A stretch of 64,000 nucleotides of DNA, taken from NCBI RefSeq assembly GCF_000372725.1, contig NW_005202427.1, positions 434,001-498,000 on the forward strand. The letters run 5' to 3'. How positions within the stretch are numbered: position 1 is the first letter of the stretch; every line of letters starts with the position of its first letter. The notes beneath the pieces are model-generated. The model had not been told where the DNA came from, did no database searches, and worked only from the letters and a program-made list of their open reading frames with translations. Both the position numbers and the translations under genes were made by a program. This document shows positions 11,546-62,600 of the stretch, in pieces. The DNA comes from Emiliania huxleyi CCMP1516. Taxonomy: Eukaryota.

Positions 11546-12365
11546 TCACAGGAAGGAGTACTTGACCTTGTTGCCCTCGGGCAGCGAGAACTGCTGCACC
11601 GGGCCCGACGGGCCCGCAAAGGCGCCCGCCACCGACGCGACCTGCTCGTCGGGCAGCGCGTCCGCCTCCGGCTCGTCCGCGCCGAGCGTGAGCTCGTCGA
11701 GCAGCTCCTCGAGGCCGACATCGGGGAAGTCGTCGTCCTCCGCCTCCTCGCCCTCGCCGTCGGCGTCGCCGCCGCTCGCCGCGCCCGAGGCCGCCGCCTG
11801 CGCCGCCGCCGCCGCCGCGCGCCGGTCGGCCTCCGGGTCGCGGTAGAGGTTGATCTGGGCACGCATCTCCGGGTCCTCCTCGAGATCCTGCATGAACTCC
11901 TCGTACTCGTGCTCGTACTGCGACGTGTCGAGCTTACGGCCGCGCTGCGCCGTCCACTCGGACTCCTCCTGCTCCTTGGCGAGGGACTGCAGCTTCCACG
12001 CGCGCCGGCGCGGCTTCCTCCGCCGCTCGGAGTAGCTCTTCTTGACGAGCAGTACCTAATCAGTCATTCACACCTCATTCCTCATTCACAACTAGTGATA
12101 CCTCATCCTTCCTGACGAGCAGCACCTCGGGCAGCTGGCCACACTCATGCTCGGACAGCTCGCTCGGCAGCGTGGACCCGCTGACCGCGTAGCCCCACAC
12201 AAAGTCGCCCACGCGAAGCACGTTGCCGAGGTGCGTCAGCGTGCGCACCGTCGTGTCGTTTGCTCCGAAGTCGTCGCGCCGCGCGACAGTCACCTCGGCG
12301 AGGCAAGTCGGCTCGCGCGAGGGCCCGTCAACCGGCGCGTCGCTCGAGGAGCGCTTCTTCTTCTT

Positions 12366-12412
<47 letters not shown>

Positions 12413-13830
12413 GCTGCCGCTCGCGCGGCGCCTCGATCTCGAGATCGAGGACGACGAACTCGGCCAGGCAGGAGCGGGTGAGGGCGGACGCGAACTGCTT
12501 CTTCCAAAATGTGAGCGGGAGCAGCTCGGCGGTGCGCATCGTCTTTGGGTCGATGAGGTGGACGATGTTGGACACCTGTGCACCGACCCGCCCCGCTCAT
12601 CGAGGGCTAGCTCACGGACCATCTCGCCATATCTCGCCATATCTCGCCATATCTCCCGAGGGCTAGCTCATAGGCCGCGTTCTCTCCCCACAGGGCCGAG
12701 GGGGTGGCGCGGCGCTGGTCACGCGCACAGCCGTCGGGTGGGCTGACCCTCTACCGCAGGCTCGCCTCGGGGCGGTGCCCATATCTCGCCATATCTCGCC
12801 ATATCTCGCCATATCTCGCCATATCTCCCCAGCCGGGACGCGCCTTGTTGCAAAGCATGAAGCGCGGAACCTGCCCCACCGTCGCCGCCGTGCTCGCCGG
12901 CAGCCAGAGCGCGTCGCCGCGGCAGATTGGCAGCAGCTCCACCGAGTAGGTGAACTTGTACCGCCCCTTCCCCGTGTGCGTGTCGGTCGAGATGAGCTGC
13001 TTGGATGTCTTGTACCGGGTCGGCGCGACGCCCTGCAGGAAGGCGGTCATCTTCTCGGCGTGCGAGCGCGCCTCGTAGAAGAAGTCGAGCCCGTCGCGCC
13101 GCTCGACGATGTTGATCGCGTCCGTGTGCGCGCGGTGCTTGAGGATGAGCTGCTCGATCCAGAAGAACGTCCGCTTGTGCTCCACCTTTTGCCGAACCTA
13201 CCGGCAGAGAGCGGCGCGCATTTGGAGGAGCGAGCGAGCGGAGGGAGGGGGGAGTGCGCCGGTTGGGCGCTGCGACGAGGGGGTGCGGTGCGAGGCGCGG
13301 TGGCCAAGTGCGGCTGGAAGCGCGGACACGGTGCGACTGGCGGCGCTGACAAGAGGCGGGGTTGCCGGCACCTGGCAGACGGCGACCCACGTGTCCTTGG
13401 CCTCTCGCCGCTGGCAGGTGCCGCACTGCTTGTTGCCGAGGACGTACTCCACCACGAAGGACTGCTGCAGCACCGCGCCCGCCACCACCTCCTGCTGCAC
13501 CGTCAGCTTGAGCTTGATGCGACGCGAGTGAGGCTCGGTCCAAACATACGAGGCGTCGATGAGCCGGACCTGCGTCAGCCCGCGCGGCTTCTTGAGCAGC
13601 AGCGCGAGGAGCTCCTTGGACTCCATGTCCACCTCCGCCCAGCTGCCGTCCCGCCGCTCGAACCGGTTGCAGCCGCGGCACGTGTTTTGCTGGACCTGCT
13701 TCGATACTCCTGCGCCGATGTCGTAGCGCTCCTGGAGACAGTTGACGCACATATTGACCGCGTTCGGCTCGATCACGACGGCGCACTGGCAGCAGAGGAT
13801 CTTGTGTGGCTGGTCCAGGATCATGGCCAT
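11546..13830 (-). CDS. NMD3: 60S ribosomal export adaptor NMD3 (multi-exon; introns include 13198-13371 and 12056-12125)
   Basis: ILCCQC..IEPNAVNMCVNC, LIDASYVWTEPHSRRIKLKLTVQ, VRQKVEHKRTFFWIEQLILKH, DLEEDPEMRAQINLYRD. Confidence 0.93.
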
Positions 13831-14140
13831 GGTTTTGGCCTGGGCCAAGGTAGGGAGCGTGCCGCGATCTTCGTCCAGGGGCAGCTGACTGCGTGTGCGT
13901 TGCTTGTGCTTGTCGCGTCGACGCGCGGATGAGGGTTTCTTTGAGCCGGTGTGGTTGCCAGTTCGCGCGCCAGTCCGCGCCCTTGTCGTGCCAGTGTGCT
14001 GTGAGAGAGGCTTGTATTTTAAGAATTCTTTTTTCAGCAGCAGGGCACGGGACCTCCCTTTACATATAAGCTGTGTTCCGTGTGTGTGGCCTCGTCGGCT
14101 GTGAAAAAAAAACGCGCGGTCGAGCTGGGAATAGATTCGC

Positions 14141-14279
14141 CGCAAGCGGCGTGGAGCGGTTGAGCATCCCTCCGGGGGCCCCTCTGCGCCGGGGAGGCGT
14201 TGTTGGAGGCTAGGACGCAAGCGTCCGTCGCCCTTTTTCAAACTCGGGGCCCACTCCGCTACGCTCCGACCCGAATTTG
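14141..14279 (-). repeat. Dispersed repeat module C (intact); a split copy lies at 55470-55515 plus 57434-57539
   Basis: Reverse complement caaattcgggtcggagcgtagcggagtgggccccgagtttgaaaaa...cctccccggcgcagaggggcccccggagggatgctcaaccgc matches both halves. Confidence 0.85.
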
Positions 14280-14514
14280 CTGCGGCAAAAAACGACGTGG
14301 CTCGCAGGCTGACCCGGGGAAGCATTCACGCATCACGGGTTCGAGTCGTCAAACAATTATTAAGCAGCGGAGGTGTGCCGAGCGAGGGGGGCCGGGAGGC
14401 GGTAAGTCGTCGTCGCCCGGGGCCCGGCGCTGCTTGCAGCACCATGGCGATGGCGCTAAGTAAGATGCTCCTCTTTTCCGCGCGCCCCCGCAAGGCGCGC
14501 GATACTGAGGGAGG

Positions 14515-14937: not shown

Positions 14938-17900
14938 CTATCGGCTATCGCTCGACAAGTCGACCTTCTTGGGCAGCAGCTGGTTCGAGTCAGCTCCGTG
15001 TCCTAGGCAGCCGGTGTCGCCCCCGCCCCAAGTAAAGACGGCCCCATCGCCGGTGAGGGCGAGGCTGTGGCGGACTCCAGCCGACACAGCGACAACGCGC
15101 TGGTCAGCAAAGGCCTCGACCTTCTTTGGCAGCAGCTGCTGCTGCTCATCGCCGTGGCCCAGCTGGCCACAACCTCCCCAGCCCCAGCTCCAGACGGCGC
15201 TGTCGGCGGTGAGGGCGAGGCTGTGAGCCAATCCAGCAGACACTGCGAGGACACGCTGTTGAGCCAAAGCCTCGACCTTCTTCGGCAGCAGCTGGCGCTG
15301 CCCGCCGCCGTGGCCCAGCCAGCCTTCCCCTTCACCACCCCAGCTCCAGACGGCGCCGTCGGCGGTGAGGGCGAGGCTGTGGCGGTCTGCAGCCGACACA
15401 GCGACCACGCGCCGACCCGCAAAGGCCTCGACCCTTTTTGGCAGCAACTGGTCCTGCCGGTCGCCGTGGCCCAGCACGCCATCGTCTCCCCAGCCCCAGC
15501 TCCAGACGGCACCGTCGGCGGTGATGGCGAGGATGTGGCCGTCTGCAGCCGAGACAGCGACCACGCGCTGGCCTGCCAAAGCCTCGACCTTTTTCGGCAG
15601 CAGCTGTTTCTGCTGGTCGCCGTGGCCCGGCCGGCCAAAAGCTCCACTGCCCCAGCTCCACACGGCCCCGTCGGCGGTGATGGCAAAGCTGTGTGCGAGT
15701 CCCGCCGAGACCGCGACGACGCGCTGATCAGCCAAGGCCTCGACTTTCTTGGGCAGCAGCTGGCTCTGCTCGTCGCCGTGGCCCAACCGGCCCCCGCCTC
15801 CCCAGCCCCAGCTCCAGGCGCTGCCGTCGGCGGTGAGGGCGAGGCTGTGGTAGGGTCCAACCGACACGCTCACGGCGCGCTCGCCGCCCAGCGTCGACGG
15901 GAGGCGGGTCGGCGTGTTGAGCCGCGTCACGCCCTCGCCGTGACCGAGCAGTCCTGGCCTCCAGATCTCAGCCGCCCCGCACGACGAGAGCCGCCCCTCG
16001 CCGTCGATGAAGAGGCTGTGCCGAGCGCCTGCCGCCGCCCTCGCCGGCGGGTTGGACTCGCGCAGCAACGCAGAACAGCACAGCCACCGCACGGCACAGC
16101 TCTCGCCCGCTGGCGGCGCCGGCAGCTCGAAGCCGCGCTCTTGCGCCCACAAGCGGATGCCTTCCTTCGCAAGCGAAGCGTGGAAGATGTGCGAGACGGC
16201 CGCAACGCGAGCGATGTCGGCGGGGTCGCAGCGAGAGACGACGCGCACGAGGAGCTCCGTGGGGAGGTCGAGGAGGCGGGTGGGTACCTCGCCCTCCGCT
16301 TCCACCCCTCTAGCAGGCCCCTCCTCGGCCCCATCTCCCGCGCTGCCCTCCCCTTGCGCGGGAGCGACGTCCGCCTCGTCCCGCTCGTACGCGATGCCGA
16401 ACTCATTGGCGCGCTTCCGGTCCACGGGGTAGAGGCGGCGCTGGTAGAGGAGGACGAGGAAGACGAGGTCGTCCCGCAGGCAGGCGACGCGGTGGGCGGT
16501 CGGCATCGCGACCATCAGCGCGAAGGCGTCGTCGATGAAGGTGTTGAAGGCCTTGTACGCGAGGACGCGCCACGGCAGGTGGGCGACGCTCTTCATCTGG
16601 CGCGAGGGGGGGCGGGGGAGCTCTGCCTCGAAACGGCGTGTGTACTTCCTCGGCGACGGCAGAAGCGAGGGGGCTGGTCTGGCGCAGGCGGGGGCACGGG
16701 GAAGGGGGATGCCCTGGGAGGGACCGAGGCCTGGATAGGGCGGGGGGGGGTTGAGCAGCGAACCGCCTTGCGGCTGAAGAAGATCTGGGGATCTCGGGAG
16801 ATCTCGGGCCATCTCGGGCCCTCTCGGCTCCTCTCGGCGCCTTGTAGTTGATGAAGAGCTGTGGCGTCATCGCGATGAAGCCGAAGAGGTAGATCGCGTC
16901 GGCCAGCGAGCCGAGCAGCCAGCTGTACCTGACAAGAGGGTGCAGAATCCAAGGGTGGGTGACTCGCCCCCTCGGAGGCGGGGCTGGCGGGAGGACGGCG
17001 GGGAAGCGGCGCGCCACGACGCGTGCGGGTAGTGGAGCAGCGCGTACAGCGCCCAGCCGACGACCAGCGGCGCGAGTCCCCACGTCAAGTGCCGCGTCGC
17101 AACCTCGTCGAACCGCTCCGTCGCCGCCTCGGCGCGCGCGCCCTCGCCGCCGGCGCCGGCGGCCGCGCCGCGCGCCCGCCGCCGCATCGCAACCACCTTG
17201 GTCAGCTTCCAAAGCTCGAGGGCGGTGGAGAAGGCGTAGGTAGCGAGGACGATCGAGTTGACGCCGTCGCCGTCGAGCAGGTAGAGGAAGATGACGAGCG
17301 TGGAGCCCGCGTTGAAGATGACGCCGCGCGAGGACAGGCCCCTCAGGTCCTCCCGCCCCTTCCAGAAGCCGACGTCGTTCCGGAAGGCGAGCGCGTCAAA
17401 GACGACGTGCAGCAGCCCGATCAGCTGCATCAGCGCGAAGCGGTAGAGGCGCTTCTCGGAGAGCAGCTCGCGTAGCTCGTCGAACTCGGCCTACAGGAAG
17501 GTTCAGAGCCAGGGTCAGGGAAGGGTCAGGGAAGGCACAGCTCGCGCAGCGCGTCAAACTGCCTCCATCCCGCTGGCCGCCTGCAGCGCGCCAAGCGCCG
17601 TGTGCAGCTGGCGCGTGGCGCGGTACCGACCGAGGGAGATGGGCAGCAGCCGCAGCCGCAGCCGAGGAGGCTCCTTGCCCACGTCGCTCGAGAGAGGCAG
17701 CGCGTGCTTGCCCAGCAGGCCGAGCTCGTCGACGTACAGCCGAGGCGCGTACACGCGCCGAGACCAGTCCACGCCGTTCGCGACCACGGCCCCGTCGCTC
17801 GGCAGCACCGGCCCGGCGTGCGGCGTCTCGTCGGCAACCAGCCGCAGCTCGAGGCTCGCCGCCGCATAGAGGTAGTGCGGCACCTCGCCCCGCTCGTTCG

Positions 17901-18402: not shown

Positions 18403-19176
18403 GGCGGAGGTCCGATAGGTGCGAAGGCTGGCCGCTCTTTGGCGGCTCCGAGGTTGTTGTTGTGCGCGTCCAGCCGCCCTGGCGTGCGAAAATAAGAATT
18501 TAGCCGGCAGAGTGGGACGACCGCGAGGTGGCATGAAGGTTGCAGCGAGAAGCGGCGAGAGACTGCGAAGAGAGAGGAAGAGGCGGACGCCCAAGGGTGG
18601 CGACAGCTAGCGCATCACACCCCTCTCCTTAAAATCCCCGTGTGGTGGCGGCGTGCCGTCCTCCCCATCCCTCCCCTGGGTTGTCCTTTTCTTTCTTTTT
18701 TTAGCAGACAGGCTCTCGCAGCCGCGCTGCACAATGTTCCAGCTCAGGAGGTCCCCCTGTGCTTCTCGCAGCTTTGTGCAGCGCAACGAGCGGGCAGCGC
18801 TGCACGAGGCGGACGCGCGGACCCACGGCGTGCTCAGCGAGCCGCGAGGCGGAGGCAGGCCGAGTGAGCGCGAGCCGCATCGGCGCCCATGTCCCGCGCA
18901 GCGGCGAGCGAGCGGCACGGAGGAGTGCAATGTCGCGCATTGCGAAACGGTTTTCCAGCGGTCCTTATTCCATGTCCGAACTTGGAGCACTTGGAGTGCA
19001 GTCATCAACCTCACATCCAGGGCCGGGGAGCTAAGAAGCGCGTGCGCGCAAATTCTCTTTGCCGTGATTTTAGTGCTACCCGGGTACAGCCCGGGCCAGC
19101 GCGCCAGAGACCCGTGCCCAGTGTCGTGCGAGGGAGCGTGCGCGGGGTGTGTCTGTGTGTGTGACGCGACAAGGGG

Positions 19177-23591: not shown

Positions 23592-26500
23592 ATGACCTCG
23601 CGGACTCGACAGCAGGACATAGCCCCGAGCGTCTCCGAGGCCCTGCGCCTCATGAAGCAGGCAGTGCAGTCGTCGCTGGACCTCGGAGACATTAACCCGC
23701 AATCGGCAAAGCGGAAGCACGTGTCTCCGCGCCACTTGCCACGCACGACAGCGCACAGCCTCAACCCTTGTATAGGTTTGCAAGGCGGTTGGGATGACCA
23801 AGCCGCAGCTATCTTCGTGGCTCACGACGACGTGTGCGGTCCCAACGTCCAACTTCCCACTTACCTCGCCCCGCTGACGCTGAAACGGTCCCGTCGTCAC
23901 GCGGTCGCAGGTCGCCGTCCCCCCACTGGGACGCAAAGGTTGCCGAGTGGCTCAAGCAGGCCCAGGCCCGCGCGCTGAGCGCAAACGGCGCGCTGCTCCC
24001 CTCACCCCATACCCTCCACCTCGCGCCGGTAACGTCGCCCTAACCGCCTCCGCCCCGGCCCGACGTAGCTCCGGCCCGCCCCTCCTGCCGGCACAGGCGC
24101 GCAGCACCGCGGCGCGTCTTCCAGCGTAAGCTCCAAGGGGTCGGGCAAGGCGGCCAAGGCCAGCCAACCGGCCAAGGCCAGCCCGAGCGGCGGCGCGAGC
24201 GCAAAGGCGGCGACGAGCAGAGAGAGCACGCCCGGCGGCAAGGGCGTGCAAGCCGGCGGCAAGGCGAGCACGGAGCAGAGCGTGAGGAGGCTGAAGCAGG
24301 ACTTGCTCGAGCTCGAGACGTACATCCCCTGGACCGCCGTCTCCTCCGCGTGGCAGTCCAAGCGCGCCGCGTGGGAGCGCAAGACGTGCGAGGCGGAGAG
24401 AGAGGGCGACGCGACACGTCCACGGCGCGTCTTCACGGCGGCGTCGCACCTCGCTCACGGTATAGGTGCGCGGCGGGGGACGCCGGGTGCGTGGTGCAGC
24501 AGCTGCTCGCGCTCGAGCGCTTCCTACTGCCGTGCGCCTTCGAGGCGCGCTGGAGCGCGGGCAATGAGTGGCGCGCGAGGCTGCTCCGCCAGAACAGCGC
24601 GGCCGACGTGAAGCAGTCGCTGCGCGCGCCGGAGGACGCGATGGGAGCCTTCCAGGAGCCTTCCAGGAGCCTTCCAGGAACCCTCTAGGCGCGAGCTGGA
24701 GGACGCGATGCACTGGGCGCGCTTCGGCGCGCACAGCACGCTCGTGGAGCGGCGCCGCGGCGCTGCGTGTGCGGAGGGCGCAAAAGAAAAACACGTGGCC
24801 CCACGCTGTCCCCCGCCTGCCGTGTAGGTATGAGCAGCTGCTCACGTCGCGGGCGGGCGAGCAGCTCGAGCGGCTCGGGGCGAGGAGGCTGGCGCAGGTT
24901 CGGAGCACGATCGACTCGTTCGGGTGACGCGGCGGAGCCTCGCGCACCCGACACGTCCCTGGACGCGCCCACGAGACGCGTCCACGACACGTCCGTAGGT
25001 ACGCAGGCCTAGCCGACATGGCTCAGGATTGCATCGCCATCGCGGGCGGCGCCGAGGGCGCAGGCGCCGAGCTGCGCGAGCTGCGCGAGAGCATCTGCGC
25101 CGCGCTGGGCGTGCCGCTCACGGACGCGCTGCTGCGGCTGCCGGCCAAGTGCGCGCGCTCGACCCTTCTAGGAACCTTCTACGAACCTTCTACGAACCTT
25201 CTAGGCTGCCGGCCAAGGGCGCGCGTTCGACCGACGCCAGCGACGACCTCTCCAGCACCACCAGCGCGCTCGCCGCCGCGCCCGACGACGCCGACGGCGG
25301 CGGCGGCGGCGAGGCGGGAGGCGAGCTGGCCGCGGCCGCCGAGCCGGGCGGCGGCGGCGGCGGCGGGTTGTTCTCGGAGGAGGTGCGGCTCGCGGGCGCC
25401 AAGCGCGAGCGGGTGGTGTCCAAGGAGCAGCGCTTCGAGGAGTTCAAACGGCGACAGCGGCTCCACCCCGAGATCACGGGCGCGCGCACCGGCCGCTTCC
25501 CTCTTGGGGCGCCTCGGCACTTTCTCGGCACCCGTTCGGCACCTTCCTGCAGGCGTGTACGCCGACCGGTTCCTCGAGCGCGCGCCCGATATGCGCCACT
25601 TCCAGGAGCTGTCCCAACCCAGCGGGGGTGCGCCGGCCTTCTCGGAAGCGTCTTTGAGGCGTCCCGGAGGCGGGGCCTGTAGGAGCTGATCGTCTTTCGC
25701 GAGGCTGCGAGCGCGGACGGGGTGGCGGGGGTGCTGCTCCTCTCCCCCGGCACGACCCTCTTTCAGCTGCGCCGCCAGCTCGCCTCCGAGCTCGGCCTCG
25801 AGGGCCGCAACACCACCCTCTCACGCCTCGCGGGCTCCCCAAACCCCGTCGCCCCGAGCCACCCCCTCGGAGCCCGTCCCGTAGGCGGCGACGACCTCCC
25901 CATATCTCCCCATATCTCCCCATATCTCCCCATGTCCCGTAGGCGGCGACGACCTCGAGCTGCGCCGTGTCGTGTGGGAGGGGGAGCACGCGCCGGCCGC
26001 GGACGCGGCCGGGGGCATCCCACTGCCCGCCGCGCAGAACCACAAGCGCGACGCCCGCCTCCTCTCCCCCGGCATCGGACGCGTCCTCGACACGTCCCGT
26101 GCCGAGCCTGTCTGGTAGGCTGGCCTACCCCTTCTTCCCGCTCGCCAGCCAGGTCCTCGTCGTGCGCAGCCCGGCCGCGCCGGCCGCTCCGCTCCCCTTC
26201 CTCCCCGGCGACACCGCCCTCTGCGCCGACATCTCGCGCGGCCGCGAGGCGCAGCCAATTGCCCTCTTCAACAGCGCGGACGACGAGCCCGCGCCCGTCT
26301 TCACGTGCGTGACGCAGTGCTGTCTAGCTGTCTAGGAAGTGTCTACGAAGTGTCTACGAAGTGTCTAGGTACGTGACGCAGTGCGTGGTGAGCGAGTCGC
26401 TCCGGCTGTTGGTGGGCGGGCCACAGCTCGGCGCCTGGCTCTGCCCGAGGCTGAGGGGAGGCGGCGGCGGCGGCGGTTGCGGCGGCGGCGGCGGCGGCGG

Positions 26501-27353
26501 CGAGCCAAACTACGACCAGCACGGCCGGCTACGCTTCGCGCCGCACACCGTCGAGTCGATTTGGGAGTGCTGCCTCGAGAGCATGTGCCGTCCGGGCTGC
26601 GACAACCGGCTGGTGCAGTACGGGCCGCGCTTCCGGCTCGAGGCGTTCCGCTGTGTCGCTTGGCCCCGCGTGGAGGCCGCCTCTGCTCACTGTCTGCTGC
26701 GAGTCAGGTGTTCCGCTGCCCGCCCGTCGGCCGCATCTCCAAGGGGTGGGGCATCCGCAGCCCCGAGCTGATCCCGCGCGGCTCCTTCGTCTGCGAGTAC
26801 GTCGGCGAGTACATCTCCGACGACGAGGCGGAGAGCCGAGGCATCCGGTACGATAACCAAAAGATGAGTCGGCTGATGGACGTGTACGGAAACGGCAGGG
26901 ATGCGGTCCACATGTGCATCGACGCACGACATGGACGAGGTATGAACGGCGTCTCTTCACACCTGCTGCTGTGAACAGGTCCACATGTGCATCGACGCGA
27001 CCAAGTTCTCGAACGTCGGCGCGCGGCCCACCCCTCGCCTGGCTACGCCGCCCACGCCCGCCCGCGCTTCCCCTCGCCACCACCGCTGTCCCGACCGCCG
27101 GACAGCCACACTCGCAGCTCCCGGCCTCCCCCCTTGCCCAGGCCGCTTCCTCAACCACTCATGCGAGCCGAACGTCTTCAAGCAGCGCGTGTTTTGCGAC
27201 CACCACGTGCGGCTGCCCAGGATAGCCTTCTTCGCCCTCGTGGACATCCCGCCTCGCGTGGAGCTCTGCTACGACTACGGGTATGTGGACGTGCCGGGCA
27301 AGACCATGCCATGTCTCTGCGGCGCAAAGAGCTGCAAAAAGCTGCTGTATTGA
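23592..27353 (+). CDS. Pre-SET/SET/post-SET histone lysine methyltransferase (SUV39/G9a-like), many introns; 5' exons tentative
   Basis: DISRGREAQPI, WECC..CRPGCDNRLVQYG, KGWGIRS..IPRGSFVCEYVGEYI, NVGRFLNHSCEPN, ELCYDYG, CLCGAKSCKKLLY. Confidence 0.85.
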
Positions 27354-32261: not shown

Positions 32262-34665
32262 ATGTCCACCCAGGAGGACGCCGTCCTCCAGGAGCTTATC
32301 CAGCGCGCCTTGGCCTACCCGGACGGCGGCATCTCCGCCGAGGCCGAGGCGGAAGCGGCTGCAGAGGCGGCCGAGCTGGCGGCCGAGGCGGAGGCGGAGG
32401 CGGTGCTCTCAGACTCGCGCCGCTGGCCGGCGGGCCTGAGGAGGCTGCTCGACGGCCCTCCTCCGGCAGGCGGTGATGCGGCCTACCCGTCTCACGCACC
32501 CGACTCGGCCACCGGCCTGCTCTGCGGCGTCGCGCCCATGCTGCTGCACCGCTCGGCCGGCGCAGAGGTCTGGCAGCGCGGCGATTTGTACGATGAGCAC
32601 GTCGAGCGGCCCGCCCGGATAGTGGCCGTCTACGACGCGCTGCTGCGCGAGGGCCTCGTCGGCCGCGCCAAGCTCATTCCCGCGCGGCCAGCGGCGCGCT
32701 CGGACCTCGAGCTCGTCCACTCGCGCTCTCATTCGAGGAGGGCGGTGCGGCGGTACGAGGGGGAGGAGGAGGCGCACGAGGCGCTGGGGCTGCAGCTGGG
32801 CGCCGACACCTACTTCGCGGCGGGCGAGTCGGGCCGCGCGGCGCTGCTGAGCTGCGGCTCCGTCGTCGAGCTCGCGACTCGCCGTCTCGTTCAGGAAGTG
32901 TCTAGGAAGTGTCTAGGAAGTGTCTAGGCTCGGTCGTCGAGCTCGCGACTCGCGTGGTGACGGGAGAGCTGTCCAACGCGCTGGCGGTGGTGCGGCCGCC
33001 GGGCCACCACTGCGAGGCACGGCAGGCGATGGGCTTCTGCCTCCTCAACAACATCGCCGTGGCGGCGGCGGTCGCGCGCGCGCGGCTCGGCGTGCAGCGC
33101 GTGCTGGTCGTTGACTGGGACGTCCACCACGGCAGTGCACTAGACACTTCCTAGACACCTCCTAGACACCTCCTAGACACTTCCTATTGACTGGGACGTC
33201 CACCACGGCAGTGCACTAGACACTTCCTAGACACCTCCTAGACACCTCCTAGACACCTCCTATTGACTGGGACGTCCACCACGGCAGTGCACTAGACACT
33301 TCCTAGACACCTCCTAGACACCTCCTAGACACCTCCTATTGACTGGGACGTCCACCACGGCAGTGCACTAGACACTTCCTAGACACCTCCTAGACACCTC
33401 CTAGACACCTCCTATTGACTGGGACGTCCACCACGGCAGTGTGTGGCGGCAGCGGGCGGCAGCGGCGAGTGGCTCCTCGCAGCTGGGTCGGAGGTGTGGC
33501 TGTAGGCAACGGCATCCAGCACATCTTTGAAGAGGACGGCTCGGTGCTGTACGCCTCGCTGCACCGGTACGGACACGGCTTTTACCCAGGCACCGGCGGC
33601 GCGCACGCCGTCGGCGAGGGCGCCGGCAGGGGCTTCAGCCTCAACATCCCGTGGAGCTCGGCCGGGTACGGCGACGCGGAGTACGCGGCCGCCTTCGAGC
33701 GGTTGCTGATGCCGGTGGCGCGCGAGTTCGCGCCGGATCTCGTCCTCGTCGCCGCCGGCTTCGACGCGGCGGCGCGCGACCCGCTCGGCGGCATGGAGGC
33801 GTCTGAAACCCCCCCCGCGCCTCTCGGCTGCCTCTCGTTCGTTGCGAGAGGTTGTGCGGCTTTGCCGAGCACCGCACTGCACTGCTCCCCCGCACTGCTC
33901 CCCCGCAGGTCTCCCCCGCCGGCTACGCGTACATGACGGCGCAGCTGCGCTCCCTCGCCGCCGGCCGGCTGGTGGTCGCTCTCGAGGGGGGGTCCGCCGG
34001 CCCATCCCCTGCCGCCTCCTCCACCCCTCCCTCCACCCCTCCACCCCTCCACCCCTCCACCCCTCCACCCCTCCACCCCTCCACCCCTCCACCCCTCCAC
34101 CCCTCCCCCCCTCCCTCCCTTCCACCCCTCCCTCCCTTCCACCCCACCCCCTTCCCTCCCTCCCTCCCTCCCTCCCTCCCTCCCTTCCACCCCACCCCCT
34201 TCCCTCCCTCCCTCCCTCCCTCCCTCCCTCCCTCCCTCCCTCCCTCCCTCCCTCCGGGCCCGTGCAACCGGTCACCACCGACGCAGGTACAACCTGCGCT
34301 CCATCTCCTCCTCCGCGGCGGCGGTGATGCGCGTGCTGCTCGGCGACGACCCTCCGCCGCTGCCTCCGGCGCCGCCGTGCCGCTCGGCGGCTCGAGACAT
34401 CCTCGAGGCGAGCCACGCGATGGCGCCCTTCTGGCGGAGCGTCGCGGCGGCTCTTGGCGGGCCGCAGGCGCAGCCGCGCTCCGCTGTCGCGCGGCCGCGG
34501 CTCTCGAGGGCCGCCTTGCGCGAGCTCTACGGGACACGCGCTTACCCTCGCCGCCGCCGTCGCTCGCGCTGGCCGTTCAAGTGGAGGGCGACGACGCCCT
34601 CTGCGTGGCGGGGGGCGGCACGTCGGCGGCCCGCCTGGCACCGCTTCATGTACGGCGATGAATGA
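32262..34665 (+). CDS. Class II histone deacetylase (HDA1/HDAC6-like); introns 32857-32927, 33132-33505, 33799-33908, 33992-34286
   Basis: HVERPARI, RPPGHHCE..AMGFCLLNNIAV, VDWDVHHG|NG, FAPDLVLVAAGFDAA.RDPLG, ALEGG|YNL after splicing. Confidence 0.92.
33111..33441. repeat. 76-bp tandem repeat (4 units plus a partial): exon end, splice donor and ctagacacytc satellite
   Basis: ttgactgggacgtccaccacggcagtg at 33111, 33187, 33263, 33339, 33415. Confidence 0.95.
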
Positions 34666-35502
34666 GGGGAGAGTTTGCGCCATCGGTGCCCTCGCGCGTG
34701 TGGGGGGGCGCCAGCTTGCGGCCTCTCAGACTCCAAACGCCCGCCTGCATCCTGGCACACGACACTCTCGAGGGCACGCACGACGCAGCGCGGGGCGCCT
34801 GGCGGCGCCCATTTTTTGAAATGTCTGCCACTCACCTAAGCGGCTCTCAGAAACACTCACGTGCGCGCTGCGCAAGTGGCAAGAGATTTTATTATAATAA
34901 AAAGTTAACCTATAACCAGCCGTATTTTCCCTTTTTGCGGCGAGTGAAAATCGCAAGAGATTATGTTGAGCAATCCATATCTGAACATCTCAGATCACTC
35001 GAGAGATCACTGTTCACTCGCCTCTCGCGCGAGAACCGAGATCCTCGAGGGGGCGAAGATATCACGAGATCAAGCACACACACGGGTAAATCACGGCTAC
35101 GTCGCTCAGAGGTAGAGGTAAAGGGCCCACGGCTGCCCAGAGGTAAAGGTGAGGGGGGGCGCAGGCCCTCAGAGGTAGAGGTAAAACCTAGACCGCTCCT
35201 ACCCGGCCCTCCGGGCCGACCGACCGACACTCGACGCATGAGACACATGTCACATCCCAGTGCAGCGAAGGGAGGAAGGGCAGAGAGATGAGCCGGCTCT
35301 TACTCTCTTTCAGATGGCTTTCCTCTTATTCTTTCCCTGTTTTGGGGTGGACGATCGCCAAAAATCATCTCCTCCTAGTTGACTAATAGAAGTTAATGAA
35401 GCCGGCTATTCGTGCTATTCGCCAAAACTCGTATGGGAGGTCTGTCGCCGACGGCAACGTCCCGCATCCTCCCCCACCACTGCAGCCAGGGTCTGAGTCC
35501 GC

Positions 35503-41155: not shown

Positions 41156-41205
41156 CAGAGGCGCCTGTGTAGTGTGTTCACAGTAGGGTGATAAGAAACA
41201 AGAAC

Positions 41206-41639
41206 CTCGCGCGACGCCGCTGTTTGCTGCCGCCGCAAAAGGCCACACAGAGGTGGTGGCGGCGCTGCTGAAGGCGGGCGCCAACCCGAACACTCTCTTC
41301 ACGTGGGGCCTCGGCATGCTCGCCTCGGCCATGCCGCTGCTACCTGCCGCCACGGAAGGCCACACAGAGGTGGTGGCGGAACTGCTAAAGGCGGGTGCCA
41401 ACCCGAACACTCCCAACACGCTTGGCCTCGGCATGCTCGCCTCGCAACCGCCGCTGCATGCTGCCGCCTTTAAAGGCCACACAGAGGTGGTGTTGGAGCT
41501 GCTGAAGGCGGGCGCCAACCCGAGCACTCCCTCCACGCTTGGCTTCGGTATGCACACCTCGCAAACGCCGCTGCATGCTGCCACCCAGAAAGGCCACACG
41601 GAGATAAAGGCACTGCTGCTGAAGGCTGGAGCGGACTGA
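41206..41639 (+). pseudogene. Detached 3' part of the duplicated ankyrin gene
   Basis: Matches the reverse complement of ~37109-37430 with one extra repeat; homology continues in the 3' flank to ~41817 versus ~36934. Confidence 0.75.
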
Positions 41640-46472: not shown

Positions 46473-46537
<65 letters not shown>

Positions 46538-49940: not shown

Positions 49941-52416
49941 ATGAGCGGCGCCATCCTCCCAACCCGCCTCGCCGACCTGGCTCGGGGCGACCTGGCCTGG
50001 CTGCGCGCCTTCCTGTCTGGGCAGGGGACGCGCGGCACGTCGCTCGCGGCCCAGCTCGACGCGCGGCACGACACCGACAGGCAGGACACGCTGCTCACCT
50101 GGGCCGCTCGTCACGGGCAGGCCGAGGCGGCGCGGCTGCTGCTCGAGGGCGGCGCGAGCGTGGGGGCGACGACTGGCGGCGGCGCTTCCGCGCTATATAT
50201 TGCGTGCCAGAACGGCCACCTCGACTGCGTCCGGCTGCTCCTCGAGGCTGGCGCGGCGATGGACCAGGCCAAGGAGAACGGCGCCACGCCGCTGCTCATC
50301 GCGAGCCAGAAGGGCCACCTCGAATGCGCCCAGCTGCTCCTCGAGGCTGGCGCGGCGGTGGCTCATGCAGACGCTGAAGGCCGCACGCCGCTGTACGTCG
50401 CGAGCCTGCAGGGCCATGGCCAGTGCGTCCGGCTGCTGCGCGACGCTGGCGCGGCGGTCAACCAAGCAGACGCCAGAGGCTTCTCGCCGCTGTACGTCGC
50501 GAGCCAGGAGGGCCACCTCGAGATCGCCCGGCTGCTTCTCGAGGCTGGCGCAGCGGTAAGCCAAGCCCGCAACGACGGCACCACGCCGCTGTTCATCGCG
50601 AGCCAGAAGGGCCACCTCGAGGTCGCCCGGCTGCTCCTCGAGGCTGGCGCGGCGGTGGCTCATGCAGACGCTGAAGGCCGCACGCCGCTGTACGTCGCGA
50701 GCCTGCAGGGCCATGGCCAGTGCGTCCGGCTGCTTCTCGAGGCGAGCGCGGCGGTCAACCAAGCCAAGGACGGCGCCACGCCGCTGTTCGCGGCGTGCCA
50801 GGAGGGCCACCTCGAGTGCGCCCAGCTGCTGCGCGACGCTGGCGCTGACATCAACCAAGCCAGGACCGACGGCACCACGCCGCTGTACATCGCGTGCCAG
50901 AAGGGCCACCTCGAGATCGTCCAGCTGCTCCTTGAGGCCGGCGCAGCGGTCAACCAAGCCACGCACAATGGTTTCACGCCGCTGTTCGTTGCGTGCGGGC
51001 AGGGCCACGTCGAGTGCGCCCAGCTGCTGCGCGACGCTGGCGCTGACATCAACCAGGTCGCGGAGAGCGGCGCCACGCCGCTGTTCGTTGCGTGCCAGAA
51101 CGGCCACGTCGAGTGCGCCCGGCTGCTCCGCGAGGCTGGCGCGGCGGTCAACCAAGCCAAGGAGAATGGCGCCACGCCGCTGTGCATTGCGTGCTACAAG
51201 GGCCACGTCGAGTGCGTCCGGCTGCTGTGCGACGCTGGCGCGGCGGTCAACCAAGCCCGCAACGACGGCGCCACGCCGCTGTTCATCGCGTGTCAGAACG
51301 GCCACCTCGAGTGCGCCCAGCTGCTGCGCGACGCTGGCGCGGCGGTCAACCAAGCCCGCAACGACGGCGCCACGCCGCTGTTCATGGCGAGCCAGCAGGG
51401 CCAGCTCGAGAGCGCCCAGCTGCTCCTCGAGGCCGGCGCAGCGATCGACCAAGCCGATGAGGACGGCACCACGCCGCTGCTCATCGCGAGCCAGGAGGGC
51501 CACCCCGAGTGCGTTCGGCTGCTTCTCGAGGCCGGCGCAGTGATCGACCAGGCCGATGAGCAAGGCACCACAACGCTGTTCGCGGCGTGCCAGGACGGCC
51601 ACCTCGAGGTCGCCAAGCTCCTCTCCTCCTACGGCGCCTCCCGCGCCGCTACGCCCTTCGGCACGCCCGAGGAGATTGCAACCGAAGAAGGCCACGCCGA
51701 CCTCGCTGCCTGGCTGGTCGCCAGCCGCGGCTGGACGCCGCTCCAGCATCTCGAGGCGTGCCCGAGACTAGCGGCCGAAGGCGTGAGCGCGCTGTCCTCA
51801 CGCCCATTGCCCCTCTTCCGCAGGCGCTCACCTTCGAGCGGGCGCGGGCGCTGCTGCGCGGCGGCGCCGACCCGCTCGCCGGCGCGCGTTCTGCCCTCGA
51901 GCGGGCGCGCGTCCTCTGCTCGTGGAGCGAGTCGGATCCGACCGCTGCGGCCGTCGGTTCCACGGTCGTGATCCGCTCTCTCGTCTCGCGGCCCTCGATG
52001 AACGGCAAGGTCGGCGTCGTCGTCTCCGCGAGCGCTTCGACGCGCCGCTTCGGCGTGCGCGTGGCGGGCGAGGCCAAGGCACTCGCACTGAGGCGCGCAC
52101 TGCAATGTTCTCTCCCCGACTCGCCGGATCCTCTCTTTGGAAACACCCCACGCCTCTGCCCTTCCCCAGGCCGGCCAACCTGCAGCCAGCGGCCGAGGCG
52201 GTGGAGGTGGGCAGGCTCATCCTCAAGGCGGCGGAGTGGTCGCCGCAGTCGCACGAGCTCTTCCCAACAGCGGCTCGCAAGCGGGCGGTCGAGGTGCTGC
52301 GGCTGGGCTACCTGATCGCTTGGGACGAGGAGCGCTTCGACAGCCGCGAGGGAGCGGCTCCGGAGCTGGCGGACATCTGGCGCGGCTTTGTGCTGCCAAG
52401 GGTGGTGGTGCGGTGA
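49941..52416 (+). CDS. Long ankyrin-repeat protein (~16 repeats) with two 3' introns (first ~51756-51823)
   Basis: 33-aa G.TPL.IA.Q.GHLE...LL.EAGA.VNQA repeats; spliced C-terminal tail. Confidence 0.85.
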
Positions 52417-52749: not shown

Positions 52750-55376
52750 TCACCAGTCGTAGGAGGATGAGTCGGAGGTGCGTCGGCCGGCAGAGCGAAG
52801 CGCCTCGAGCTCCTCCTCCGTCTCGACCGGCGTGAGGTTGAGCAGCTTGAGCCGCCTCTCCTGGTAGTACTCGAGCCCGTCGAGCGACCCGAGGGCGGCG
52901 CGCAGCTCGTTCGCCGCCGCAGAGACCGCGCGCCGCTCGGCGTACCGCACCGCAGCGCAGCGGTAGCCGACCGACTCGCGCGGCGCCTCGGCGAGGGACG
53001 CCAGGTCGAGTTGGACGTCGCCGCGCAGCTTGCCGAGCGCACTCGTGACCGCGTCGTGCCCGAGCTGCAGCGCCGCCGCCTCGTTTTGCCTGGAGACGGG
53101 CTGCTGCAGGTGCTCGCGCCAGAGGTCGTCTGCGAAGAGGGCCTGTGGGGAGACATGGGGAGATATGGGGAGATGTGGGGCCTCTCGCGCCAGGGGTCAA
53201 GAGGGCCTGCGGGGGCGGGGGGCGGGCGCTGTGGTGGTGCCGTGGACATGTCGTGGACATGTCGTGGGCATGTCGTGGGCATGTCGTGGGCATGTCGTGG
53301 ACATGTCGTCGACATGTCGTGGGCATGTCGTGGGCGTGTCGTGGACATGCCGTGGACATGCCGTGGACATGTCGTGGGCATGTCGTGGGCATGTCGTGGA
53401 CATGCCGTGGACATGCCGTGGACATGTCGTGGGCATGTCGTGGGCATGTCGTGGACATGCCGTGGACATGCCGTGGACATGCCGTGGACATGCCGTGGAC
53501 ATGTCGTGGGCATGTCGTGGGCGTGTCGTGGGCGTGTCGTGGACATGTCGTGGCCATGTCGTGGCCATGTCGTGGGCATGTCGTGGGCATGTCGTGGACA
53601 TGCCTAACTGCAGGGGCGGTGTCGGCGCCTCGAGCAAGAATGCGTCCGAAGGCGTGGAGGGCGGGCCGAGGTGGACGAGGCGTAGGTAGGCGAGCAGGTC
53701 GGGCGGCAGCGGGTCCGCCTCGGACACGACGAAGCCCTGCTCCACCGCGCTCAGCCCGACCCGCTCGAGCACATCCACCTTGGCAAGAGGGGCCAGAGGG
53801 TTAGGGCTAGGGGTTAGGGTTAGGGCTAGGGCTGGGGGTTAGGGCTAGGGCTTGGGAGCCGGGGCTGGGGGTTAGGGCGGCCCGCTCGAGGACAGTGCCG
53901 TGCTGACGTGTCGGATGTGGCATGTCGTGCCACTAAGAGCACCCGCGCGCGCCTTCTCGTCGTAGTTTGGGTCGTCGTCGGCGACGCCAAAGCGCAGGCT
54001 CGCCTCTGGCGGCACCGGCTCGGCGACGAAGCCGTAGTCAAGGAGCAACTCGCCGCGCGTCGCCTCGGCGTAGCAGAGGGTGAGCGCATCCCCAGCCGAC
54101 AGGTCCGCCTGCGCAGTCAGCTCGACCGCGCCTCCCTCGCCTCCACGCCCAAACAGGCCAGCCTGCGGGACGACGCGGGACCCAGGCGTGAGTGCCCCGT
54201 CTGTGCGGCGTCCCGTGCCCCCGCCCCCCCGAATTCATCTGGACTCTGCCTGCGGGCCGCGCGCTTGAAGGCTGGCGCTCGGCGAGTCGGCATGGTTGCC
54301 TAGTCCCATACCTCCAGAGTACCGAATCCAGTGCGTGGGCTCGGCTCCAGCCTCGGCGAGGCGGAATGGTTGCAGAGCTCGACCAGCGGCAGCAGCGCCG
54401 GCCTCGCCGGCTCGCCCTGCCGCCCGCCCGCCGGCACGAAGACGCAGCGCGAGAAGGCGAGCCTGGAGGTGTCGGGGAGGTGTCCAGGAAGTGTGTCCTG
54501 GAACGGTCTACGACGCAGCGCGAGAGAGCGCCCGAGTGCGCGCAGGAAGGACGCCTCGCTGAAGACCGACTCGGGGAAGACCATCGGGGAGGCCTCGAAG
54601 ACGTTCTCGCGCAGCCTGGCCGCACACGCGGGCGGGCGGGGTGGGTAGGCGACAGGCGTGCCGCGCCCTTCCGCCCTCCGCCCTCTCCTACCCCCCACTC
54701 CCACTGCTCCGCACCACTCGTAGTCGGCCCCATATCTCCCCATATCTCCCCATATCTCCCCATATCTCCCCATATCTCCCCATATCTCCCCATATCTCCC
54801 CATATCTCCCCATATCTCCCCATATCTCCCCATATCTCCCCATATCTCCCCATATCCGCACCACTCGTAGTCGGCCTGCGCCGCGAGCCGCCGCTCCACA
54901 CACGGCGCCGCGGTGGACTGCTCGAGCTCGGCCTGGTCGTCCGAGGGCCAGAGCAGCGGCAGGTCGTGCTGCTCCACCTGCCAGCACGCCGACGAGAGCC
55001 ACGGCGCGAGGCTGGACTGCTCACCGAGCCGCTCCTCGTTGAGCAGTGCGACGGCGATGAAGGAGTAGTCTGCGAGGTAAGGCTCGAACTCGACGAGGTA
55101 GGCGCCGAGGAGCTCAGAACGCAGGGCAGACTCGGCGGTGATGGCCAGCTCCTCCGGCACGCTGAGCAGCCGATCGCCCCGCCGCACCGCCCGAGCCGCA
55201 ACGAGGCCGACGCCAAGCTGGGCCGCGTCGGCGGCCTGGACGACGGACACGTCGCCGCCCTGCGACGCGACCCACTCTGCGAGCGGCGGCACCGCGGCCA
55301 CCCGGGTCGCGGTCGCGGGACAGCTGGTGAGCGCGGCGTAGGCGGCGGAAGCGAGGAGCAGGAAAATCCCCAACAT
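52750..55376 (-). CDS. Rubisco-LSMT-like SET-domain protein lysine methyltransferase with signal peptide, many introns
   Basis: GVGLVAARAVRRGDRLLSVP, ALLPLVELC|NHAD, LTLCYAEATRGELLLDYGFV, LLAYLRL, PVSRQNEAAAL, LEYYQERRLK. Confidence 0.8.
53241..53602. repeat. Intronic 11-bp satellite (ggacatgtcgt)n
   Basis: About 33 tandem units. Confidence 0.95.
53797..53876. repeat. Intronic telomere-like (TTAGGG/CTAGGG)n tract
   Basis: agggttagggctaggggttagggttagggctaggg. Confidence 0.85.
54729..54857. repeat. Intronic 10-bp satellite (ccatatctcc)n; related arrays at 12619-12657, 12778-12828, 25897-25933, 62358-62392
   Basis: About 13 tandem units. Confidence 0.95.
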
Positions 55377-59319: not shown

Positions 59320-59609
59320 GGAGAGCTCTCTTCGTTCCAGCAACGAGGGAAGAAACGAGGTTTAGGCCCGGTGTTTGTGCCGCGTCCCGTGCCCCCGAGT
59401 TCACACAAAAACACAACCCCGGCCCCAAGATTGGCCGCTTTGTGTATCTCAAGACCTCGAGAGAAGGCCGCCCTGAGAGTTGGCTTTCTTTTCGGCGGGC
59501 AAGCAGTTCACGATCAAAAAAGAATTCCCGCCATGGTTTTTCTTATTTTCCACGCACGACACTGGTGTACCAGTGCGTGCAAGCTTTAAATTCTTTTTCC
59601 ACGCGGGCC

Positions 59610-62600
59610 ATGGCGGGCGGCGACATCCACGCCGCGGCGCTCCAGGGCGACATCGCCGCGGTCCGCGAGCTGATCGACAAACGGGACGACCGGATGGAGG
59701 CGGGCGGCTACACTCCGCTCGGGCTCGCGGTCTCTGCCGGGCACGTGGAGATCGTGCGGCTGCTGCTGCGCGAGACGGTGACCGTCGATGCGGCTGACGA
59801 CGAGGGCGTCACTGCGCTGATGCACGCGGCGATGCACGGGTACGGCGCGCTCGTCGATCTCCTGCTCCTGCACGGCGCGTCGCCGCTCAAGACCCGGAAC
59901 GACGGCGAGAGCGCGCACACGCTCGCTGCGCTGTATGGCCGTCCCGCCGCGCTGGGAGCCTTCTTCCGCGCGAACGGCGCGCTCGTCGAGACTCCGAACG
60001 CGCTCGGGCGCACGCCGCTGCACAACGCCGTCACTCTCCGCCACCTGATCACCATCAAGTACCTGATCGGCGCGGACCACCCTACCTCCAGAGTATCGAA
60101 TCCAGTGTGGGTTCAGTCCCGTGGGTGGTGCGGTATTAGGCGCGTGGCGGGCCGACCCCACCGTCGAGGACAGAGAAGGCAACTCTCCGCTGCACCTCTG
60201 CCGAGGGCCCGTCGAGGCGCTCGTCCTGCTGCTGCACGGAAGCGCCTCCCGCCCCTCCCTCGCCGCATCCAACCTGGCCGGCCGCACCCCACCCGAGGAG
60301 GCTGCGGCGGCGGTGCGCGCTCCACCGCACCACCCACGGAGAGCCAAACCCTCACTGGGTTCGACACTCGGGAGGTATGGTACTAGGGCGCGTCGAGCGG
60401 GGTGGTGGCGGCGATGCGGGAGGCGAGCAAGGGGGAGGGGTCGGGCGCCTGGCTCAACAGCCAGAACGTCGACACACGCCTCCTCTCCTTCCTCGCCGGC
60501 TCCCCGCTCCGCACGCCTCCGAAGCAGCTGCCCGACGGCCCCTGGTTCGGGCAGGTCCGGCCCGCGCTCGTCGTGCAGAGCCTCGTGCCCTACTGCTGGG
60601 GCCTTACCCTCGCCTACTCGCTGCCAGCGGGCGCCGCCCTCCTCGTCGGCGCGCCCCCCTACCCTACCTCCAGAGTGGTCGAATCCGGTGTGGGTTCAGC
60701 TCCGTGGGTGGTGCGGTAGGCGCGCCCCTCCTCGCGGGCTGGTGGAGCCGACTCGTGCGGAACGACCGCTGCCGCGCCGGGGCAGAAGGGCTGCTGCAGG
60801 GCTGCCCCGAGCTGCGCCACTTGCTCGGCCTCTCCGACTCCTCCTCCTCGCCGAACGGGGGGAGGCTCGACCTGTGCGCGCTCTACCGCACCACCCACGG
60901 AGCTGAACCCTCGCCGGGTTCGAGACTTTGGGAGGTATGGGACTAGGCGCGCCCCCCTCGGCCTCGTCCTTGCCATCCTCTTCCTGATGGCGACGCAGGC
61001 GCTCCTCGTGACCCCGCTGCTGCTGCCGCAGAGGCCGCTGCTCTCCCTCGCATCCTATGCCGCACAGGCCCTCCTCGTCTACAACTACGTCCACGCCGTC
61101 TCGACGCCGCCCGCGATGCTGCCCGGCGCCAAGCCGGACTACCCTACCTCCAGAGTCTCGAATCCAGTGTGGGTTCAGTCCCGTGGGTGGTGCGGGACTA
61201 GGCGCCGATGCGGAGTCCGCCGCCGCGTACTGGTCTGCCCTCGAGGTGCCTCTCCCCTACCCCCCACGGTACCTGAACCCACCCTCCCCTACCTCACGGT
61301 ACCCAAACCCACCCTCCCCTACCTCGGTATCCGAACCCACCCTCCCCTACCTCACGGTACCCGAACCCACGCCTCGTACTGGCCTCTCCCCTCGAGGTTA
61401 ATTCGCGGCTAATTGACTGCGAATCAGCTGCTAGTTCACTGTGTGCTACCTCACTTCTCTCGTTCGAGGCTAATTGGCCGCTAACTCGCTGCGAATCAGC
61501 TGCTAATCCAAGTGCTGGTTCTCTCTCTGCCCTCTCCAGGCCCTCCCCCCGAACGCGGGCTTCCCCACCGACTTTTGCGAGCGGTCCGAGCGGAGGAAGG
61601 TCGCGCGCGCGCGCTACTCCCCGATGTGCGCAGGGATGGTGCACGTGATGGACCATGACTGCGTCTGGAAATAAGAATACATAATAATCATAGGTGCGGC
61701 GGGATGGTGCACGTGATGGACCATGACTGTGACCAGCGTCTCTTCACACCTCTAGCTGTAAACAGGTGCGGCGGGATGGTGCACGTGATGGACCATGACT
61801 GCGTCTGGATCGGGACGGTCGTCTGCGAGTCGAACCACCCCGCTTTCGTCGGCTTCCTCCTCGCCGCGGTGGCCGCAATCTGCCTCCACCTCGCCTGCCT
61901 CGCTACGGTGCAGCCGCGCGTGGTGAGGCTGTTGCGCAATACTCGTACTGATAGGAAGTCAGAATCCGAGCAGGTGCAGCCGGACGTGATTCTGTTGTTG
62001 CGCAGCTTGCTCTCGGGGACGCCAGCCACGTTCGAGGCGAGGAGAGGGAGGAGGAGGAGAGGGGAGGAGGAGGAGAGGAGGGAGGAGGAGGAGAGGGAGG
62101 GAGGGGGAGAGGGAGGGAGGAGGAGAGGGAGGAGGGGGAGAGGGAGGAGGAGAGGGGTCGCGAGAAGAGGAGGGAGGAGGGGGAGAGGGAGGAGGAGGAG
62201 AGGGGTCGAGAAGAGAAGGGAGGACAGCCATCCTCATCCCAGCCCCCCCCCCCCTTCCCCCCCCCTCGAGGCGCGCGTGCTCTGCCTCTCTGCCGTCCTC
62301 TCCTCCCTCCTCCTCCTTGGGGTGCTGCCGCTTCTCATCTTCCACCTCTGGGGCGAGAGATATAGCCGAGATATAGCCGAGATATAGCCGAGAGATCGCA
62401 CCTCTGGGGCGAACCCTTCAAGAGAGAGAGAGAGAGAGAGAGTTAGCCATACCAAACAACTTTAACACTCACACGCGTCATTTGGGGCCTGGAGCCCTGT
62501 TCACGCGCGAGAGAGACGTGCAGCCCATGCAGGGTTCCCAGGTGAGAGCGAATGGCGCGGTTCACCCCTCGCACAACAGATAGCCTTCAGCGTGACGGCG

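Follow-up and report, generated by a model that had tools for sequence, protein, structure and literature searches.

Short introns of Emiliania huxleyi that open with a copy of the next exon: an apparently ongoing mode of intron creation, probably by insertion with a long, variable target duplication

The window analyzed here is a 64,000-nucleotide (nt) stretch of Emiliania huxleyi CCMP1516 DNA (NW_005202427.1, positions 434,001–498,000; 66% G+C). Its genes are interrupted by short introns that begin with a copy of the start of the following exon and continue into a filler ending in AG. A preliminary description had singled out 15 of these introns in six genes and had proposed that they arise by insertion with a long, variable target duplication. 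All 15 are G[CT]...AG segments of 64–80 nt whose start matches that of the following exon. An anchored gapped score of intron start against next exon reached at least 9 in 14 of the 15 and at least 7 in every one; among 462 mismatched intron/exon pairs the same thresholds were reached by 0.9% and 3.7%. The intron in CLPTM1 and one at 54463 required a small indel to align the exon copy. Excision leaves open reading frames (ORFs), as had been claimed, and 12 of the 15 lengths are not divisible by 3. Pfam confirmed the identities of NMD3, CLPTM1, SET, HDAC, and DHHC among the window genes; the sixth label, LSMT, is unconfirmed, with 0 Pfam families matched, and a search with DHHC exons gave no match.

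The listed introns differ widely in the length of the copy and in the filler. On the minus strand, the NMD3 intron (12056–12125, GT..AG) has a 16/18 copy and an AT-rich patchwork filler, and that of CLPTM1 (17491–17562, GC..AG) has a copy of about 25 nt. SET, on the plus strand, holds seven: 24386–24465 (10/11), 24622–24688 (20/22), 25137–25204 (26/28), 25480–25552 (15/21), 26305–26368 (15/16), 26643–26707 (10/11), and 26906–26978 (20/20). The second, third, and fifth of these are filled by arrays of an 11-mer and the last by a repeat that we call family B. The HDAC intron (32857–32927, plus strand) combines a 25/26 copy with an 11-mer array. The gene labeled LSMT (minus strand) contributes 54300–54373, a 20/22 copy followed by a 5′-truncated, reverse member of a second repeat, family A, and 54463–54531, a copy of about 20 nt followed by an antisense 11-mer array. 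In DHHC (plus strand), 60649–60719 (9/9) and 61126–61201 (10/13) carry family A in forward orientation, and 61908–61973 has a 24/31 copy.

The preliminary description overlooked both the filler families and a number of further cases. DHHC has three more family A introns, one forward with a 5-nt copy (60070–60139) and two reverse (60313–60386 and 60874–60946). It also holds two units stacked on one exon start (61626 and 61694, together 61626–61765), the first a 42/44 copy with an AT-rich filler and the second a 36/36 copy with family B. In HDAC, a duplication that straddles the donor, with an antisense 11-mer filler, has been amplified into a tandem array with a 76-nt unit and a copy number of 4.4 (33111–33441, plus strand). 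A perfect 21-nt duplication, apparently also straddling a donor, surrounds a 13-unit 10-mer array whose end is not AG (54709–54876, minus strand). Two 14-nt duplications lie outside any splice context: one flanks a 10-mer array within another NMD3 intron and is itself no intron of the gene (12601–12670), and the other surrounds an 11-mer array, without AG end or splice reading (62343–62412). A 17-nt duplication flanks a telomere-like hexamer array inside a gene (53757–53894, minus strand). Just past the DHHC gene, a block of about 480 nt is present in tandem (62250–62700 and 62720–63215), each copy with its own duplication-plus-array unit; this may be a pseudogene or an assembly feature.

Transcript-type support was obtained for 5 of the 15 listed introns. 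The RNA contig X11 skips the CLPTM1 intron, joining 17488 to 17561, and the JGI protein P0002 reads through the SET junctions at 25480, 26305, 26643, and 26906, the last three being spliced in P0001 as well. P0002 (476 aa) lies on a 1543-nt contig, so its source is intronless. In addition, the RNA piece X13 stops at 24385, adjoining the SET intron at 24386, and four NMD3 orthologues align across 12056 as a single copy; the best named match to NMD3 is from Tisochrysis lutea. The remaining 8 introns are predicted from sequence. Splicing of the family A introns is read from the reading frame, and family B accounts for one of the five transcript-supported cases. P0002 also locates a probable GA-AG intron with a 6-nt exon copy in SET (25606–25682). 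Junction use has one counterexample, absent from the preliminary description: a 58-nt SET unit (25885–25942, plus strand) consisting of a 23-nt duplication, 9 nt of which belong to the upstream exon and match the filler end, and a 10-mer array. In another allele, represented by P0002, this unit remains as additional in-frame codons, as in intron retention; other runs read T at 25883. An early idea that this duplication contains intron sequence was ruled out, as P0002 reads those 9 nt as exon.

Among introns placed independently of the copy, by RNA contigs or P0001/P0002, 5 of 12 scored at least 9, and among NMD3 introns placed by orthologues 1 of 3 has an exon copy. The total is 6 of 15 (about 40%), in genes that the preliminary description had pre-selected. 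All of the DHHC units, the stacked pair at 61626/61694 among them, recur in an orthologue from an independent metagenome (L052); the DHHC units are therefore not assembly errors. The pieces listed for the DNA runs X6 and X8 showed no intron absence, and the joint table of RNA and DNA contig matches was dominated by repeat artefacts.

The fillers sort into families A and B, 10–11-mer arrays, the telomere-like array, and AT-rich patchworks. Family A is about 64 nt long, with imperfect inverted ends of up to 8 nt; short direct terminal repeats are not evident. Six copies lie in the window, five of them in DHHC, and both orientations occur, also within one gene. Family B (12 copies, about 40 nt) is marked by a direct terminal repeat of 8 nt and, near its 3′ end, a hairpin. 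Both are multi-copy families in introns of unrelated genes, as expected of introners in the broad sense. A single exact 25-nt family A pattern was found in 46 metagenome loci (113 kb). AT-rich patchworks (G+C below 0.42) make up 11 of 62 fillers and are internally repetitive. Look-alikes in 157 kb were found for 52 of 84 filler queries, low-complexity matches included, and the fillers appear to be mostly pieces of other introns. Intronic repeats of 10–11 bp are reportedly noted in the supplement to the 2013 E. huxleyi genome paper, which may bear on novelty.

Fold-back was not significant in any of six fillers (z from +0.5 to −2.0), and Rfam gave no match in five loci. No viral or bacterial source for the fillers was shown by our searches, which returned 0 hits for family A and for one AT-rich filler in viral contigs and 0 for family B in prokaryote genomes. 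A 14-base pattern with 36 matches in viral contigs was taken as chance and not used.

To extend the comparison we used metagenome loci of the same lineage chosen by a family A match, in which introns are putative. The main set comprises 38 independent loci (92.7 kb); L052, L062, L063, L066, and L074, and later L038, were dropped as same-locus duplicates, and L054 and L081 were dropped later because of coding repeats. Flank duplications sought without splice anchoring scored at least 10 in 16 of 42 family A copies, compared with 3.2% of mismatched pairs. When the test was anchored on the AG end of family A itself, the figures were 10 of 37 and 0.4%, with lengths of 1–36 nt; neither test selects on the duplication; 4 of 41 copies lacked the anchor, and the automatic orientation was wrong for a few (L069, L053, and L076). 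Many family A duplications are only 4–9 nt long, and most family B copies have 20–36 nt. Overall, the copy is 1–50 nt and is followed by a filler ending in AG.

A de novo search pointed the same way. The 38 loci contain 103 non-tandem short-range repeats, of which 40 have AG|GY at the repeat start, against 5–20 for ten other dinucleotides, 17 for the mirror layout (donor at the filler start, acceptor from the end of the second copy), and a baseline of about 14. The mirror layout is thus near baseline overall; individual instances are L039:1731, L043:905, and L051:1130. Repeats spaced 45–100 nt apart number 88, compared with 6–15 in three shuffles, with a spacing peak at 60–79 nt. In the window and in the metagenome loci, then, similarity of intron start to exon start is clearly above mismatched pairs and shuffles. 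A lenient G..AG rule proved weakly specific (63 of 88, controls 19–50), and our conclusions use the strict AG|GY rule. Without a tandem filter, coding repeats overwhelmed the signal, and AG could not be told apart from control dinucleotides. We estimate 47–63 putative copy-bearing introns in the 92.7 kb, or about one per 1.5–2 kb of gene-rich DNA, a density biased upward by the family A selection.

Several observations argue that these are insertions, as originally proposed. Full-length elements carry long copies (35/36 in L059, 19/19 in L069, and 20–36 nt in family B). Duplications that include intron sequence straddle a donor or acceptor at 33111 and in L063, and duplication plus filler is found where no splice site is served, at 12601 and 62343. 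L069 carries a 93-nt copy-plus-filler unit where L038, 96% identical, has a single copy, one pair that could reflect either gain or loss. Together with the filler-anchored lengths, these make insertion with a long, variable duplication, the core common to most explanations considered below, very probable.

Once made, the copies appear to decay or multiply. Copy and exon are 71–100% identical. Their mismatches show no codon periodicity (54 of 159) and fall 2–3 times more often on A/T, as would be expected were the intron copy released from constraint and moving toward high G+C. The preliminary description read the spread as repeated gains over time. It fits that reading, but identity is a rough clock only, for the L069/L038 pair suggests fast divergence or loss. 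Between these two loci (alignment columns 421–505), the 18-nt intronic exon copy has 3 changes, all toward G/C, against a background of about 4%; such copies may change at more than the neutral rate, or undergo renewed conversion. Selective retouching of the donor region was rejected (46 of 433 mismatched at +2 to +8, 83 of 794 later). Paired copies have been amplified 4.4-fold at 33111, probably by recombination between them, and 2-fold at L045:870. At the 3′ junction there is an excess of matches at −3 to −7 (100 against 77 permuted, p = 0.0015); runs of 3 or more number 8 against 4.8 (p = 0.07).

The donor appears to be sampled from the exon. G-N dinucleotides in the loci are 38% GC, 27% GG, 19% GA, and 16% GT, a GC:GT ratio of 2.4:1. 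Among 63 donors there were 34 GC, 17 GT, 10 GA, and 2 GG, under a register rule that preferred, and so inflated, GT and GC; a stricter set of 62, with GG excluded, gave 35 GC, 22 GT, and 5 GA. The earlier proposal that any G-N starting the duplicate can serve must be narrowed, as GG is common in the genome and rare as a donor (2 of 63, against 27% of G-N) and has evidently been purged, and a spliceosome already accepting GC is needed. In the excerpts on which our literature comparisons draw, published E. huxleyi donors are 56–65% GC with a GC:GT ratio of 61:37, and the GC-AG majority is put down to GC content alone (PMC4028052). Sampling from exon sequence fits the published GC share, provided that the spliceosome already accepts GC. 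Tandem genomic duplication of AG|GT (PMC4974935) likewise yields introns that begin with exon-derived sequence, but in that model the duplicate supplies the donor as well as the acceptor, and foreign filler is absent. In the alga a filler is always present, and the upstream exon ends in AG in only 3 of the 15 listed introns and 27 of 62 overall.

The ends of family A bear on how copies are made. Both ends are intact in 8 of 48 copies and one end in 35; such a pattern is not that of cut-and-paste. Of 21 intact left ends, 20 read AG|G on the opposite strand. The precise end can be either end of the element, and polarity follows the sense of the intron. The combination of variable target-site duplication (TSD), fixed 3′ end, and ragged 5′ end is that of the products of target-primed reverse transcription by non-LTR (lacking long terminal repeats) and Penelope-like elements, which also show 5′ truncation and a variable, sometimes long TSD (PMC9977147, in the part covered). 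Those elements differ in that the template here would be host introns rather than the element's own RNA; there is no poly(A), and no partner element was identified.

Parentage can be traced in a few cases. L045, an unrelated gene, holds the complete 90-nt intron of L071, donor to acceptor, with 83/87 identity and the frame left open. The copy includes 21 nt that match L071's own exon, which belongs to SepSecS by Pfam. The L045 gene has no Pfam match and a motif that we take to be SpoU-like. L059b carries 8 nt of the duplicate of L059a. L059 and L045 thus show a fuzzy end with parental flank together with a variable TSD, as described for Replitron-1. A shared 5′ start of 60313 and 60874 is a weak case, since this start resembles a common donor motif. 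We also considered whether the AG end is always mechanistic, and the outcome was mixed: ends are AG-precise at 33111, 12601, L069:2434, and in L063, and are not at 54709, 62343, L079, and L051.

To account for these features we propose that an existing intron is copied, in one direction only, from a primer provided by a staggered cut within a gene, probably with the excised RNA as template and by a retroelement-type enzyme acting in trans; the RNA template and the enzyme are what we infer, and we give the proposal a probability of a little under one half (about 0.47). One strand would be nicked and its 3′ end would prime synthesis at or near the AG end of the template, sometimes aided by a few matching bases. 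Copying would halt early, at the far end of the family, or at the donor of the parent. Nicking of the other strand 1–50 nt downstream, microhomology joining, and fill-in would then duplicate the target. In exons, survival would require a duplicate beginning with GC, GT, or GA, an insert terminating in AG, and a total length of at least about 55–60 nt, and selection would keep spliceable products of about 60–80 nt. With the duplicate's first G-N as donor and the AG as acceptor, splicing would restore the old mRNA exactly, so such insertions would be tolerated. Each new intron would be a new template, allowing families, arrays, and same-gene clusters to grow, and paired copies would later decay, or undergo recombination that multiplies or removes the unit. 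We favor excised intron RNA as the template on two grounds: the AG end is all that unrelated fillers have in common, and the single clear case of a full-length daughter terminates at the two splice sites.

A number of results weigh against this proposal. No enzyme gene was found among 18 window ORFs. For most AT-rich patchworks no look-alike was found, so not all fillers are copied from known introns. The orientation of the family A core is not inherited (nearest-neighbor p = 0.36 for 29 copies, a test of low power), which, with both orientations in one gene, is not predicted by a sense-only RNA route. Most family B copies begin, by eye, at the same 8-nt direct repeat and look sequence-defined rather than randomly truncated. 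Copies outside splice context can lack an AG end (54709, 62343, L079, and L051). The stop at the donor in the L071-to-L045 transfer can also come from selection (odds of 1 in 8–10 by our rough estimate), and the copies in the L069 unit, 26/31 identical, would also suit precise loss in L038. Finally, total intron length is independent of copy length (rho 0.05–0.09) and the filler shrinks as the copy grows (rho −0.64). We attribute this to a filter on minimum length, because long copies predominate in family B, which is short, and short copies in family A, which is long. In a wider form of the proposal, which we hold to be doubtful, any excised spliceosomal intron would be reverse-transcribed into nicked genes, with the splice donor supplied by the long staggered duplication, in a self-feeding loop that is still running, and that over the last few million years would have built at least a third of the genome's introns (tens of thousands), the 10–11-mer arrays, and the GC-donor majority.

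The alternative that survives best, though we judge it unlikely, is host repair of staggered double-strand breaks, with overhang fill-in and a polymerase such as Pol theta either copying nearby or abundant DNA or making filler de novo; no mobile enzyme is needed, and the AG end comes from selection. The AT-rich, internally repetitive fillers, the telomere-like filler, microhomology at both junctions, same-gene clustering, and insertion in both orientations all suit it, and its logic is that of the Daphnia pulex neo-introns (PMC4202315, excerpts). There, too, a direct repeat of adjacent exon stands at the other end of the intron, and inserts are AT-rich with internal repeats; the repeats are just 4–12 bp (33 cases among 90 introns) and the source is mostly unknown, whereas here the copies are longer, donor families recur, and the density is much higher. 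Families with a fixed AG end that recur across unrelated genes are not expected from repair, nor is the excess of the standard over the mirror layout.

We regard as rather improbable a second alternative, non-autonomous elements mobilized by a Replitron-1-like HUH copy-and-paste transposase, which would leave a precise end opposite a fuzzy one that carries parental flank, and a variable duplication. This geometry equals that of de novo insertions of Replitron-1 in Chlamydomonas (PMC10288648, as excerpted), putative Replitrons occur in two haptophytes, and orientation is not inherited; family B has a subterminal hairpin and short direct terminal repeats, the latter not evident in family A. The Replitron-1 elements are 0.9–3.6 kb long, with about 53 bp shared between Replitron-1 and N1 at each end, a fixed polarity, and an RG target, and the excerpts do not describe intron-making. 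The fillers here, in contrast, measure 25–65 nt and have nothing but the AG end in common, the precise end of family A may be either one, the target starts with G[CTA], and junctions show microhomology.

It is quite improbable that these are old introns whose 5′ part was overwritten by next-exon sequence in an aborted loss, with a spliced cDNA or an allele lacking the intron as the source and no gain of position. Overwriting would explain why total length is independent of copy length, why the copy usually starts at the junction, and how two units came to be stacked on one exon start at 61626 and 61694, but not the intact full-length elements with 18–36-nt copies, the duplications that straddle splice sites and take in intron sequence or lie outside splice context, or L038 without the L069 unit. 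Ordinary introners of the miniature inverted-repeat transposable element (MITE) type, with a fixed short TSD and long matches arising by chance or later slippage, can be set aside: the inverted ends of family A, its insertion both ways, and its many 4–9-nt duplications recall them, but there is no single duplication length, the tail to 36 nt is far above the null, both ends are rarely intact, and most fillers lack inverted ends.

Some other features of the window deserve brief mention. A dispersed repeat with an AT-rich end (37975–38005, 38450–38535, 19099–19136, and L057:594–676, with similar motifs near 13960–14035 and 59560–59600) lies just 5′ of several genes, including NMD3 and DHHC, sometimes with a 15–20-nt duplication; we read it as a promoter-associated MITE or motif family. 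A 493-aa ORF of 7-residue repeats (35497–36978) matches beta-helical domains weakly (DUF6799, PF21930). Paralogous coding-repeat genes contain repeats of 156 nt (6117–6639 and 15036–15850), which we take to be RCC1-like, of 117 nt (37145–37443 and 41214–41603), and of 99 nt (50202–51619), labeled ankyrin-like. The 3′ ends of SET and of a convergent glycosyltransferase-like gene on the minus strand (Pfam Nucleotid_trans) probably overlap, since one RNA contig (27141–27492) links the two.

In parts, the system resembles introners already described. Introners of Symbiodinium and of Polarella (classes 4–6, 8, and 10) obtain their 5′ splice site from the TSD and bring the 3′ AG with them (10.1101/2020.10.14.339549; 10.1101/2022.06.06.494994). 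As here, the donor is the first G-N of the duplicate (GC, GT, or GA), both orientations occur, and the mRNA is restored exactly. The excerpts give those classes a fixed TSD of 3–8 nt each and defined ends, unlike the 1–50 nt per family, one ragged end, parental flank, and many unrelated fillers of the alga. E. huxleyi introners are themselves tabulated in two supplements, as 5 families with 653 copies, mean length 70 or 37, and TSD "?" or "N" (PMC9860276), and as 3 families with TSD NA/2/4, one with "10bp terminal direct repeats" (PMC12130899). Compared by table entries, these are intron families of similar size, one tabulated as co-opting the 5′ and carrying the 3′ site, and families A and B may be among them; the tables record no long or variable duplication, and their counts are far below the share seen here. 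For 213 introns, drawn from all classes, direct repeats of 4–30 bp have been reported at the intron borders or close to them (PMC11782384, excerpt). In the literature covered, including parts of PMC2784329 and PMC11282704, long variable exon-start duplications were not found for E. huxleyi; subscription papers and preprint supplements may bear on this.

These introns apparently represent a dense, ongoing mode of intron creation, by introners in the broad sense and not by MITEs. Most such introns, in other lineages too, would escape screens built on similarity from end to end and on short TSDs of fixed length, and intronic exon copies also confuse read mapping and gene prediction. The alga is culturable and has many sequenced strains, which makes the choice between RNA and DNA template directly testable. 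Donors sampled from exons would give a mechanism for the GC-AG majority. The origin of new spliceosomal introns has long been open, most gains having no visible source; here the scar of birth, the source, and a gradient of age can be read.

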